Shown here: positions 5,267 to 19,896 of the stretch, one piece after another | How the letters are laid out: every line of letters begins with the position of its first letter | How positions within the stretch are numbered: position 1 is the stretch's first letter | NCBI GenBank assembly: GCA_005222975.1 | Contig: NJBI01000003.1 | Coordinates: 70,962 to 134,961 of the forward strand | DNA length: 64,000 bases | From: Promethearchaeota archaeon Loki_b31 | GTDB taxonomy: Archaea > Asgardarchaeota > Lokiarchaeia > Sigyniarchaeales > SOKP01 | Direction of reading: 5' to 3' | Position numbers and translations under genes: made by a program | The notes under the pieces: generated by a model | What the model was told of the DNA's origin: nothing | Database searches by the model: none | Seen by the model: only the letters and a program-made list of their open reading frames with translations

Positions 5267-6999
5267 ATGCAAAATCAAAAATCTCCATATGATTCAAAAA
5301 TATGGTTAAAATCTTATGATAAGCATGTTAAACCCACTTTAGAATATCCCAAAGAAAGCCTTGGCAAATTATTCGATAACGCAATGGCGAAATTTCCTGA
5401 AAGACCTGCCTGCTTTTTCATGGAAAGAGAAATGCCTTTTAAAGAGCTTAGAGATTATGTACATAGATTTGCAACTTTTTTACAGAAAAATGGTTTGAAA
5501 AAGGGAGATCGTGTTTGTATAAACTTACCTAATTGCCCTCAATATTTAGCGGCACACTTTGGAACATTATTAGTTGGTGGTGTAGCCTCAGGGTGTTCAC
5601 CTCTTTTAAGTCCTCCTGAAATTGCTTATCAAATAAATGACAGTGAAGCTAAATTTTTCGTAACTTTAGATGCGGTATATGCGAAGGTATTAATAAAAGT
5701 CTTAGAAAAAACACCAAATCTTAAGTGCATCATAACCACTAATATCGCAGATTATATGGGACTTCCTAAAGTCAAAGTAATTCTTGGTAAATTAATAGGA
5801 AAAATTCCAAAAGGAAAAGTTACACCATATGAAGGAAAAATGGTTATTGATTTCCTAGAAGTGATGAAAACACCAATCGATTTTAAAGAAGCAGAAATAG
5901 ATGTGAAAAAAGATCTTGCTTTACTTCAATATACTGGTGGAACTACAGGGCTGCCTAAAGGTACGGAACTTACTCATGCCAACATAGCAGCTAATATAGT
6001 TCAAGTTGCAAATTGGCTTGATACAGATGAAGCAAAAGAGGGAGAATTTAATTTATCTGCTTTTCCACTCTTTCATTTAGCAGGTCTATTTATGGGTATG
6101 TCAACCCTGTATACTTCAGCTGGGCAAATATTAATTGCTAACCCTAGGGATACAGACCATATTATAAAAGAAATGATGGATAAAAATCCTAAGATAGTGG
6201 TGAATGTACCAACATTATTTTTAGCTATAAAAAATAATCCAAAAATAAAGGATGTTTCCAAGTCCACCTTTGATAATGTTGATGTTTATGTTTCTGGTGC
6301 TGCACCATTTCCCGCGGAAGCAATTCACGATTTCGAAGATTCGATGTTTGCGAAAAACAAATTATTGGAATTATATGGTATGACCGAAACATCACCCGTG
6401 CTTACCATGAATCCTTTTTATGGTAAAAAAAAAATAGGCACTGTTGGTTTACCAATGCCAGATACCGAAATACGCCTTGTTGATGTTGAAACTGGAGAAC
6501 AAGTGGAGCTTGGCAAACCCGGGGAAATAATTTGCAAAGGGCCTCAAGTTATAGAGGTTACTATAACAAACCAGAAGCAAATGCTCAAACTATTATTGAT
6601 GGATGGCTTCATACTGGAGATGTTGGTGAAATGGATGAAGACGGATTCATTACAATTGTAGATCGAACTAAAGATATGTTAATCGTAAGCGGATATAAGG
6701 TTTATAGCGTTCATGTTGAGGATATTTTAACAAAACACCCAGACATCGAATTAGTTGCCATCATTGGATTAAAAGATCCCGATCGACCGGGTAGTGAAAT
6801 TGTCAAAGCAGTCGTTCAACTTAAAGAGGGGATCGAACCAACTGATTCTGTAAAAGAGACTTTAAAAAAATATGCTTCTGAACATCTCTCGAAATATGAA
6901 AACCCTAGAGTTTGGGACTTTAGAGAAGAGTTACCTCTCACATTAGTGGGTAAAATATTAAAAAGAGCACTTCGAGAAGAAGAAACTAAAAATGATTAA
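5267..6999 (+). pseudogene. Long-chain fatty-acid-CoA ligase split by a 1-nt frameshift at ~6552
   Basis: AMP-binding QYTGGTTGLPKG and YGMTE lie in ORF 5267-6661. GYYNKPE, GWLHTGD and the final lysine motif (TLVGKI) lie in ORF 6532-6999. The two join at KGPQV|xRGYY. Confidence 0.85.
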
Positions 7000-17641: not shown

Positions 17642-18127
17642 TTAATTTAGCGATTTTATTCTAAAATCTGTTTTAAATTTTTTAATTAAAATTTTTAAAA
17701 TTTCTTCTTTTGATTTCATTTTACCGTCATAAAAAATTTTGAACATTTTTTGTTGCGGATAGTATTCTATAGGATACTTAGAGCGATTGATATCGAAATA
17801 GAGCTCTAAATCTTCATAAATTCTTTTTATTATATATGTCCGATTTTCTATAGGTATTGGATTTAAAATTTCGAATTCTAAATCTTTTTTCTTTATAAGA
17901 TTCTCTAAAAAATGTTTTTCTTTCCTACTTAACCTTATTGACCTAAATTTCCAAAAATGCCCTATAGTCCACCAGCTAAAAGTATAAAGCAAAATAATCC
18001 ATAAAGAAGTAATATAAGCAGTTATTGGTGCACCCAAATTGAATAAGATCCAGTTAAATACGCCAAGGAAGAATCCACTAAAAACATAAGCTTTTATCGT
18101 CCACCATTTTTTCGACCTTTCCATCAA
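17642..18127 (-). CDS. Hypothetical membrane protein (2 N-terminal TM helices)
   Basis: Two hydrophobic segments followed by a soluble domain. GAGGGA upstream. Confidence 0.6.
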   Translation of the reverse strand: MMERSKKWWTIKAYVFSGFFLGVFNWILFNLGAPITAYITSLWIILLYTFSWWTIGHFWKFRSIRLSRKEKHFLENLIKKKDLEFEILNPIPIENRTYIIKRIYEDLELYFDINRSKYPIEYYPQQKMFKIFYDGKMKSKEEILKILIKKFKTDFRIKSLN

Positions 18128-18440
18128 CGAGTTCCCTCTATTTGTCGTTCTATATATTTCAAATTTAAGTTTAAATTTATTCCTTGCTTTTTAAATAATA
18201 TTATATCGGTTTTCTAATATTTATTAGTAAACCAAACTATTTATTTGTTTACCAAAAAAGAAACTTAAGGGTCTTTTTTTCATTTCGATTTTGGGTATTT
18301 GATAATTGGTGATAAAAGTATCTTATTTTATTGGATATGTTCTTTGAATAAGGCTTTGTCACGATCTTCATTCATTAAATTGTCAAATTGATAAGAAAAA
18401 TAAAAATTTTTATTTTTTTTTTCTTAGCATTTTTTTAAAT

Positions 18441-18456
18441 CGAAATCTTTTTAAGG
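18441..18456 (+). promoter_or_regulatory. Putative BRE+TATA promoter for the downstream structured RNA
   Basis: CGAAATCTTTTTAAGG, about 20-25 nt upstream of the first hairpin of the RNA candidate. Confidence 0.4.
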
Positions 18457-18473
18457 TTATGGTTTATTCTATG

Positions 18474-18855
18474 TGTTAGTTATTCAAAGTCATTCAAGCT
18501 AACAAATAATTTTGGTACGCCCCAGGTGTGGCAGATACCTCTGAAAAACATTGGCAGGACGGCGACAGAATGGACACCCTCCCATATCTTAAAACACTAG
18601 GCCATCGCTTTAGCGAGGAGCTTATAAATAAAAATTAGGGCACGACCCAGAGAGGCCGTCTAGTGGCTTTATAACTGATTCCATTTATATAATGGAATTT
18701 TTCGAAACATTGGCGCATGAGGGTAAGGATAAGGTAAATTTCAAACTAGGATTTACGGATGTAGCGGTAGCTATCAATTTTTTGAGGTTACAGCTCGTTT
18801 CAATCTAAGAAAAAAAGTTTAGTGATTAGAAGCGAACTTTAGTTCGCAAGGATTT
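18474..18855 (+). ncRNA. Unidentified large structured non-coding RNA candidate
   Basis: GC-elevated, ORF-poor island with many stems: 18474-81/18497-504, 18576-81/18719-24, 18595-603/18654-65, 18605-16, 18638-48, 18678-98, 18734-56, 18832-47. G-U wobbles favour the + strand. Ends in a long T tract. Confidence 0.6.
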
Positions 18856-18867
18856 TTTTTTTTTTTT

Positions 18868-19896
18868 TTATTGTTTTGACTTATTTAATTTAATCAAAAT
18901 AAACGGCACCAGATACGATAGAATGAACCCAATTATAGCATATCTTATATATCTGTAGAAAACTGAATCAAATACGCCTCTAAAAGCTTCAAGAGCAAAG
19001 TAAACTACAAAAATAATAACTAAACCGATTATTAAATTTATAATCTTCCATTTTAAAGTTAATTTACTCGGTTCGTAATTAATGTACTCATTCTCAAGTA
19101 CATATCCGATTCCAAGTCCTAACATTACTCCACAAACCTGAGCAAATCTACCTGTATCGGTAAAAGCAGGAGGTGTTGGAAGAAGGTTCAGATAGGATGT
19201 GGGAAATAAAAGTATCCCCAATAAAAAGAGAAATAAAGAGGTTATAATAACTATTATCAATTTCACTGGTAGATTTAATTTATTGAATTGTTTCGATCCA
19301 TAAGGCTCTAAATTAATAAATAACACTAAAATTCCTAATCCTATTAAAAATCCACCAATAACATCTTCAAGGTCATGCACGCCTATAATCATTCTTGATA
19401 TTGCAATTAGGAAAATGAGGATCCCCATAACTATAACGAAATAAAGCTTTTCTCGAAATTCATATGCGATATAGCCCCATGTTGCTACAGCAGATTGAGT
19501 ATGTGCTGAAGGAAAACCGTAGGAAGTTTCTATTAATCCATCAGGGTTTTCTGGTGTGATTTCTCCAGGATCAGTATTAGATAATGGTCGTGGATCCTGG
19601 AAAATATTCTTTAGGAATTCATTCAAATAGACAGTATATAATAAGCTCAATGCTAGATTTTTCGCAAATCGCTTATCATAGACGATAAAGAAAATTGCCA
19701 CCATTACTATGAATACAATTGGGTCTCCAAGAAAAGTAATTACTTTGAAAATAGAACGTACCGTAGAGGATTCACTATAAAACGCTTCATTGAAACCCAA
19801 AGCAAGAAATATAATTCCTATAATTAACACTGCAATAAAGATTACTCCAATAGTTATTAATTGTCTCTTACTTAGAATTTTATTACTTTCAGACAT
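18868..19896 (-). CDS. PAP2-family membrane phosphatase
   Basis: KNIFQDPRP, SYGFPSAH, SRMIIGVHDLEDV; multiple TM helices. Confidence 0.9.
   Translation of the reverse strand: MSESNKILSKRQLITIGVIFIAVLIIGIIFLALGFNEAFYSESSTVRSIFKVITFLGDPIVFIVMVAIFFIVYDKRFAKNLALSLLYTVYLNEFLKNIFQDPRPLSNTDPGEITPENPDGLIETSYGFPSAHTQSAVATWGYIAYEFREKLYFVIVMGILIFLIAISRMIIGVHDLEDVIGGFLIGLGILVLFINLEPYGSKQFNKLNLPVKLIIVIITSLFLFLLGILLFPTSYLNLLPTPPAFTDTGRFAQVCGVMLGLGIGYVLENEYINYEPSKLTLKWKIINLIIGLVIIFVVYFALEAFRGVFDSVFYRYIRYAIIGFILSYLVPFILIKLNKSKQ

Follow-up and report, generated by a model that had tools for sequence, protein, structure and literature searches.

The DNA analysed here is a stretch of 64,000 nt (hereafter the window) from the genome of Promethearchaeota archaeon Loki_b31 (Lokiarchaeia; GenBank assembly GCA_005222975.1, contig NJBI01000003.1, positions 70,962 to 134,961 of the forward strand). 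Within it, two minus-strand open reading frames (ORFs), 17642-18127 and 18868-19896, are separated by about 740 nt, and no ORF of at least 40 aa is found within 18372-18867. An earlier note, made from the sequence alone, had recognised here a GC-elevated island and proposed a stand-alone structured RNA, possibly of a new Asgard class. The island is real (GC content of 0.35-0.47 across 18450-18800 compared with 0.16-0.25 to either side) and so is the RNA; the stand-alone class gives way to an IS110-family bridge RNA in a copy without its recombinase. Specifically, we assign a probability of roughly 0.8 to the reading that ~18404-18853 is a miniature, non-autonomous insertion sequence (IS) of the IS110 family of Lokiarchaeia that carries a bridge RNA and lacks the recombinase gene.

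Sequence Signals and Known RNA Families

The promoter proposed for the RNA remains plausible, in the form of two TATA-like A/T-rich boxes (18430-18439 and 18447-18456), and the putative terminator consists of the hairpin GCGAAC-TTTA-GTTCGC (18832-18847) followed by a T-run that reaches 18869. This hairpin covaries, three of its six pairs being changed on both sides in relatives with pairing kept. The 10-mer AAACATTGGC does occur twice, at 18546 and 18705, and since both flanking ORFs are on the minus strand the RNA is not a leader or riboswitch of its neighbors, again as noted before.

A search against Rfam gave no match at gathering score anywhere in the window, although whether Rfam 15 includes a bridge-RNA family was not established. 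In E-value mode only four matches appeared (E 1.2-7.7), the top one being SprC (E 1.2, 20.8 bits versus a threshold of 100), and there was no HEARO match at E up to 10. The RNA is neither RNase P RNA nor signal recognition particle (SRP) RNA, for which the earlier note had found no hallmarks: the genome's own RNase P RNA is on contig C91 (125 bits) and its SRP RNA candidate is on another contig, C65. The latter (G000:C65:10873-11177) scores 45.6 bits versus an Archaea_SRP gathering score of 96.5 and represents a divergent SRP RNA. A tRNA-like module was rejected, as ARAGORN finds none. Folding energy alone was unremarkable (z = -1.94 on the plus strand and z = -1.14 on the minus strand).

A Two-Arm Fold Kept by Compensatory Change

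Alignments of five, then six (alignment A6), diverged copies from four genomes were folded with RNAalifold and yielded a core at 18479-18675 that is closed by helix P1 and contains helices P2-P7 (Table 1). In A6, 94.8% of the cells pair compared with 28-44% when partners are slid, and 14 pairs have changed on both sides. A larger test made use of 30 matches of a covariance model (CM R1). Over 48 pairs, 89.0% of the cells pair (27.5-43.8% when slid), compensatory changes occur in 31 of the 48, and the pairing values were matched by none of 500 shuffles; the alignment was fitted to the covariance model, which favors structure. Both-side changes affect all five outer-helix pairs and both inner pairs of P3. 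With homologs and compensatory changes at hand, the structured non-coding RNA is genuine. Its conserved fold has two arms: arm A comprises P2, a loop and P3, and arm B comprises P4 and a multiloop, not a simple internal loop.

Several details of the fold drawn from the single sequence have to be revised. For the proposed closing helix CACTAGGCC/GGCCgtCTAGTG, covariation favors other partners and splits the 3' strand between P1 and P4. In the supported P1, CTAGTGGCTT pairs with the 5' end AAGTCATT, while P4 joins GCCGTCT with GGACGGC and P6 joins TAGGC with GCTTA. The long-range helix ACCCTC (18576-81)/GAGGGT (18719-24), by contrast, was retained. It connects the interior of arm B to the 3' tail and, in 20 of 23 relatives, retains 6-7 of its 7 pairs, a few compensatory changes being seen (A-U to G-C in G068 and A-U to U-A in G081). 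The possible pseudoknot helix TATCTT/AGGATA, proposed to cross it, is weak: relatives form 3-5 of its 6 pairs. Nor are there two repeated modules, the first AAACATTGGC being the 3' strand of P2 and the second part of the conserved 3' tail.

Homologous Cores Precede an IS110-Family Recombinase

Bridge RNAs are established, and Durrant et al. (2024; PMC11208160) describe them as encoded in the left end of IS110-group elements. We clustered the ORFs around the 30 loci and obtained one recurring family. At 8 of the 30 loci, a same-strand recombinase ORF begins 210-330 nt after the core start; it is intact (476-518 aa) in six and broken in two. The domains detected are PF01548 DEDD_Tnp_IS110 (E 1.9e-16) and PF02371 Transposase_20 (E 8.1e-18), and the ORF matches the solved IS621 and ISCro4 transposases (E 1e-11 to 4e-12), the match to the IS621 transposase 8wt6 (E 1.4e-11) being limited to the C-terminal domain. 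The window core is 71-75% identical to the full-length loci across 123-196 nt. Because this recombinase follows homologous cores, as it does in the case of bridge RNAs, we consider the core to be the RNA of an IS110-group left end. The hint of HEARO/omega RNAs in the earlier note thus pointed correctly to a transposon guide RNA but to the wrong partner, since it is an IS110 DEDD/Tnp recombinase, and not IscB or TnpB, that stands beside the homologs.

The similarity extends to the other end of the element. Positions 18807-18870 align directly after the recombinase stop in five of seven full-length loci (L342, L343, L344, L346, and L347), the identity being 76-89% across 39-91 nt. Before the recombinase start codon, loci L341-L347 have the tail motifs in the same order as the window: P8, AAAYGCAAYGGC, GGAGGGT, a variable hairpin, TAGCGGNAGCTAT, and a GAGGT-like site. 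As both the tail and the right end match full elements, the window element corresponds to a left end plus a right end from which the gene has been deleted, and, lacking the recombinase gene, it is filed as a non-autonomous derivative and not as an IS. Minis of this form make up at least 12 of the 30 loci, and in 10 of them the right end lies 341-371 nt past the core start. A tree of the cores places minis at several positions among the full copies; given a short alignment and support values that were not printed, we draw no conclusion from it on single or multiple origins.

Loop Sequences Covary With the Element's End and Its Flank

Loop segments were tested against the junctions by the rules of IS621. 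The left end begins with top-strand DNA that is complementary to the 3' loop of arm B; a perfect 8-mer is present in 20 of 27 own pairs compared with 46 of 580 cross pairs, and 13 of these matches have the same register, in which 7 T precede the first C. RNA and DNA covary in five types (AAAUAAAA/TTTTATTT, AGAUUAAA/TTTAATCT, AAAUUAAA/TTTAATTT, AGAUAAAA/TTTTATCT, and AAAAUAAA/TTTATTTT). In the window type the match is longer: the reverse complement of RNA 18626-18637, TAATTTTTATTT, is found at 11 of 12 positions in the window copy and at 12 of 12 in a second copy of the same genome, on contig C38.

On the other arm, complementarity joins the 3' loop of arm A with a 9-nt segment beginning one base past GCAAGGA at the right end. 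This match is perfect in 8 of 18 own pairs but in only 1 of 292 cross pairs, and in the same fixed register at least 8 of 9 positions agree in 13 of 18 own versus 30 of 292 cross pairs. Eight distinct guide sequences covary in this way. Five of the eight perfect cases are minis that match their own flank at 9 of 9 positions; therefore, those minis sit at sites that their own RNA specifies. On the left side of the window copy, the 5' loop of arm A matches the left flank at 8 of 9 positions.

Each of the two 3'-side guides is complementary to the 'right' half's top strand, and the 5' arm varies more than the 3' one; the geometry of IS621, as described in PMC11208160, agrees on both points. Based on position, strand geometry and one near-identical element pair, arm A would be the target arm and arm B the donor arm. 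The right junctions of that pair diverge from the ninth base, and the 9 nt that follow GCAAGGAN at the right end are taken from that single pair as probable flank, not element.

If the system operates as these matches suggest, the RNA would probably start near 18479 and end in the T-run after 18853. By analogy with IS621, the P1-closed two-arm core would bind an IS110 DEDD/serine recombinase that a different copy provides. Base-pairing would occur between the internal loop of arm A and a T-rich target site, and between the 3' loop of arm B and the left end of the element itself, so that donor and target DNA would be brought together and recombination could take place around a probable TT core.

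Table 1. Coordinates of the element and its RNA in the window
Feature	Position	Strand	Remarks
Left junction	18395..18409	+	Target-derived AT-rich left flank (LT-like) into probable TT core; cut uncertain by ~4 nt
Left-end start (RD), donor-guide DNA	18404..18415	+	8-mer TTTTATTT at 18408-18415, then 7 T, C at 18423
Promoter region, putative	18416..18478	+	Two TATA-like boxes; the second would put the start near 18479; conserved among window-type copies
Bridge RNA core	18479..18675	+	Closed by P1 (18479-83/18671-75, 18487-94/18662-69); RNAalifold and covariation; CM 222 bits
Arm A, putative target-binding loop	18498..18555	+	P2 (18498-502/18551-55), internal loop, P3 hairpin (18514-18539)
Arm A loop 5' side, CAAATAATTTT	18503..18513	+	Candidate left target guide; weak support
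Arm A loop 3' side, TCTGAAAAACA	18540..18550	+	Right target guide; fixed-register test
Arm B, putative donor-binding domain	18557..18661	+	P4 (18557-63/18655-61) closes multiloop
Arm B multiloop helices	P5; P6 18598-602/18620-24; P6a 18605-08/18613-16; P7 18638-40/18646-48	+	Covariation
Arm B 3' loop, TAAATAAAAATTA	18625..18637	+	Right donor guide, reads the element's own left end
Long-range (pseudoknot) helix, 5' strand ACCCTC(C)	18576..18582	+	Kept in relatives
RNA 3' tail	18676..18806	+	Corresponds to the stretch from bridge RNA to start codon of full elements
Tail motifs, first part	P8 hairpin 18677-85/18691-99; second AAACATTGGC 18705-14; GAGGGT 18719-24	+	
Tail motifs, second part	Variable hairpin 18734-56; TAGC-GGTA-GCTA 18762-73; Shine-Dalgarno-like GAGGT 18784-88; deletion scar 18790-18806	+	
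IS right end	18807..18853	+	A-run, hairpin GCGAAC/GTTCGC (18832-47), AAGGA(T)
Right junction	18854..18872	+	Probable TT core and target-derived T-run (RT); doubles as oligo-T RNA stop; overlaps PAP2 stop codon

Copies, Distribution, and Alternative Roles

The copy on C38 is the second full one of the genome and is 91% identical to that in the window. Two further copies, on C40 (G000:C40:1-127) and C93 (G000:C93:8922-9047), stop at contig ends within the P3 hairpin, at about position 130 of the element; at both places the assembly is broken by the repeat. Homology between copies begins at ~18401-18406 and extends to 18872, with the greatest divergence at 18739-18808. A lone 45-nt piece of the left end (L039, G005:C82:35118-35161; T-run, CTTAGCA and TATA region), 98% identical, is present in another genome of the genus, where it is followed by unrelated DNA and may be a solo left-end remnant. 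In G086, a short repeat lies just upstream of a full element (L342 1663-1779; 91% over 117 nt to G086:C65:35175-35291) and has no relation to the bridge RNA.

Across the taxonomic family, the core of CM R1 is matched in 24 of 135 genomes and 11 of 13 genera, at 1-5 copies each. Could the host have adopted the RNA for a cellular role independent of transposition? Its own TATA-like boxes and oligo-T end would fit such a role, as would its persistence in 14 RNA-positive genomes without a recombinase match. Yet the distribution is patchy, the copies are multiple, contig-breaking and placed in unrelated neighborhoods, and there is no reason for a cellular RNA to spell in its loops its own ends and flanks. 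We therefore regard host adoption as very improbable.

The divergent segment near the right end raised a second possibility, that it guides the RNA as an antisense regulator to a messenger RNA. Positions 18795-18810 have a perfect 16-nt antisense match to G000:C26:6058-6073, in the 5' part of an ORF (5991-6848) that appears pirin-like by eye; with a BLAST E of 0.045, the match is probably due to chance. It is the single marginal match from two queries, the variable segment of the C38 copy has no match above 13 nt, and the segment itself, lying where the RNA tail meets the right end, is a deletion scar, all of which leaves an antisense role barely credible. The variable segment of the window is shared by G023. 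A guide to a C47 locus was also rejected: this 15-nt match is in coding DNA on the same strand and is thus attributed to chance.

Eleven studies, on cold seeps and marine sediment, contributed the 20 DNA runs in which parts of the stretch were detected. For three DNA runs and for one RNA run, the contigs were compared with the stretch. In the best DNA run, summed contig depth is 68-297 over the conserved parts and 18.9 over 18740-18793, and therefore many variants appear to share the scaffold. No RNA run is among the listed runs with the stretch, and the one RNA run compared, from the same sample as the best DNA run, had no match. A scan of metagenomes and viruses used a pattern that proved too loose. 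It gave at least 118 metagenome and at least 120 viral stretches, and the DNA fetched had no match to the family hidden Markov model at E up to 10; the pattern scan may have missed real metagenomic relatives. A viral origin was rejected, as five viral matches to the first pattern shared the pattern alone and a strict pattern gave none.

The site itself differs from that in relatives. The carbamoyl-phosphate synthase and PAP2 genes end ~40 nt apart in four relatives compared with 1.25 kb here, and the inserted 1.25 kb consists of a single-copy 161-aa ORF, a spacer and the repeat element. Positions 17642-18400 hold the ORF, with two membrane helices by eye and no Pfam match, and a 270-nt AT-rich spacer; ORF, spacer and mini are all missing from the equivalent site in the four relatives. 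This ORF (p161) was rejected as a partner of the RNA, being single-copy in the genome and not beside other copies of the element. The PAP2 stop codon (minus strand, 18868-18872) is located at the margin of the T-run with which the element ends, so that the insertion abuts the 3' end of the ORF.

Recombinase Supply and the Possibility of a Relic

Several observations weigh against the reading of the element as a bridge RNA-carrying mini. Most directly, we found no IS110 recombinase in the genome assembly (92% complete) by tblastn, and neither PF02371 nor PF01548 had a hit; the cognate recombinase was found in 11 of the 135 genomes, intact in about six, and 14 of the 24 RNA-positive genomes have no match to it. 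Among the sampled loci there is no autonomous element with a left end of the window type. An empty site that would fix the ends to the base was not recovered at the three sites tried: at the window locus the relatives are confounded by the second inserted gene, for G086:C114 synteny stops short of the element, and for G085:C255 the flank is a multi-copy gene family.

The guide assignments also have their weak points. The target guide of the window copy matches its right flank at only 6 of 9 positions. When the offset was left free, the target test gave 8 of 9 in 13 of 18 own but also in 136 of 296 cross pairs, failing to discriminate because the DNA is so T-rich; guides and targets are all A/T-rich and chance matches are common. 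The left target guide is weak family-wide, with at least 8 of 9 in 6 of 23 own versus 42 of 486 cross pairs and means of 6.30 versus 5.86 at the best register. The right end, GCAAGGA, is invariant, and inspection by eye of the 5' loop of arm B, its 3' loop and the tail turned up no left donor guide that convincingly matches it. Three candidates, UGAGUU from the first bases of the arm B 5' loop, an AGAGAA loop and UAAGGAU in the tail, were rejected because none of them shows covariation with the right end or matches it completely; the invariance of the right end itself makes covariation of a left donor guide impossible.

Two of these points, the lack of a recombinase in the assembly and the 6 of 9 match of the window target guide, would also be expected of a dead relic, that is, a decaying IS110 remnant that is no longer transcribed or mobilized and whose structure is inherited and not maintained; decayed copies do exist (e.g., G023:C111 and G084:C85). 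However, the fold is kept through compensatory changes in minis of several genera, the length of the minis is constant, and five of them match their own flank in full. Between the two full copies of this genome there are nine core differences in A6. Three fall in helices and all keep pairing, while three others fall in the guide loops of arm A. The 222 bits of the window copy also argue against decay, although this score is biased because CM R1 was partly built from the window copy. On balance, we consider a relic unlikely, although less so than the two cellular roles discussed above.

We thus retain the interpretation as a non-autonomous mini with a bridge RNA, while noting that the window copy is at present an orphan guide gene, since the assembly has no recombinase. 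The incompleteness of metagenome-assembled genomes and unassembled repeats may hide recombinase copies, two copies of the element here being at contig ends; the window copy is either idle or served by an unassembled copy. More tentatively, and at less than even odds, the gene-less minis could be self-addressed non-autonomous elements, in which a complete bridge RNA specifies the element's own end as well as its landing site. A borrowed compatible recombinase would then move each mini to sites of the mini's own choosing. Such minis would outnumber their autonomous parents in Lokiarchaeia, persist without a detectable recombinase and target oligo-T tracts.

Significance and Comparison With Known Systems

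Archaeal IS110 recombinases have been surveyed, Asgard genomes included, in a preprint (10.1101/2024.06.21.599552) that also proposes an IS110-to-Nop5 link, for which the Asgard elements and RNAs described here add material. Large-scale clustering of bridge RNA loci, as far as the account in preprint 10.64898/2026.10.21.760802 goes, kept only recombinase-adjacent sequences. Our literature search found no description of IS110 minis with a bridge RNA alone; it did not cover supplements, so absence from print is unproven. What had been a candidate new class of Asgard RNA is replaced by a testable system, an archaeal bridge RNA family that is invisible to Rfam models and for which there are now a covariance model, some 40 copies and A/T guides of 8-9 nt that can be read. 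The finding suggests that, in a bridge recombinase system, the RNA half can persist as a mobile element in its own right, which bears on how such elements spread and on the action of RNA and enzyme in trans. For annotation, minis of this kind break assemblies and resemble orphan structured RNAs.

MITEs (miniature inverted-repeat transposable elements) and the gene-less offshoots of TnpB/IS200-605 elements, which keep the guide-RNA end, are short, non-autonomous and intergenic and outnumber their autonomous parents, and the minis are alike in this. Unlike MITEs, they have neither inverted repeats nor a DDE transposase, and they carry a complete guide of two specificities that names their own end and the landing site. 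With HEARO/IscB omega RNA they share the nature of a structured guide RNA of a mobile element, a few hundred nucleotides in length; the partner here is instead an IS110 recombinase and the terminal guide segment is absent.

The IS621-type bridge RNA and its recombinase, of the IS110 group, are reportedly also the subject of work by Hiraizumi et al. in 2024. As in IS621 (as described in PMC11208160), the RNA lies in a long left end upstream of a DEDD and Tnp recombinase, here seen in the homologs, and has two arms with internal loops, of which the 5' arm is more variable and the 3' arm more conserved; terminal inverted repeats are absent and insertion is site-specific. In contrast to IS621, the host is an archaeon (Lokiarchaeia) and the recombinase is only distantly related. 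A common helix, P1, closes both arms, the donor arm is a multiloop, and the 3' tail forms a long-range helix into it. Guides and targets are almost pure A/T (T-runs), the left donor guide was not identified, there is no Rfam match, and the window copy has no recombinase gene.

Partial elements of the IS110 family have been described from both sides. In Pseudomonas putida, ISPpu9 leaves, at other places in the genome, small transposase-less RNA-gene modules (solo ssr9) that are mobilized via circles made by the transposase (PMC12288879). According to the same account, ssr9 is an accessory small RNA encoded downstream of tnp, dispensable for transposition and not a bridge RNA, whereas here the module without a gene comprises the bridge RNA itself plus the two IS ends. 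Compact IS110 elements of ~800 bp, as presented in preprint 10.64898/2026.08.14.744561, keep the recombinase and lack the 5' untranslated region. They, too, imply separate loci as possible sources of bridge RNA and recombinase, and they form the mirror image of the minis described here: in the compact elements the enzyme is kept and the RNA is missing, whereas in the minis the RNA is kept and the enzyme is missing.

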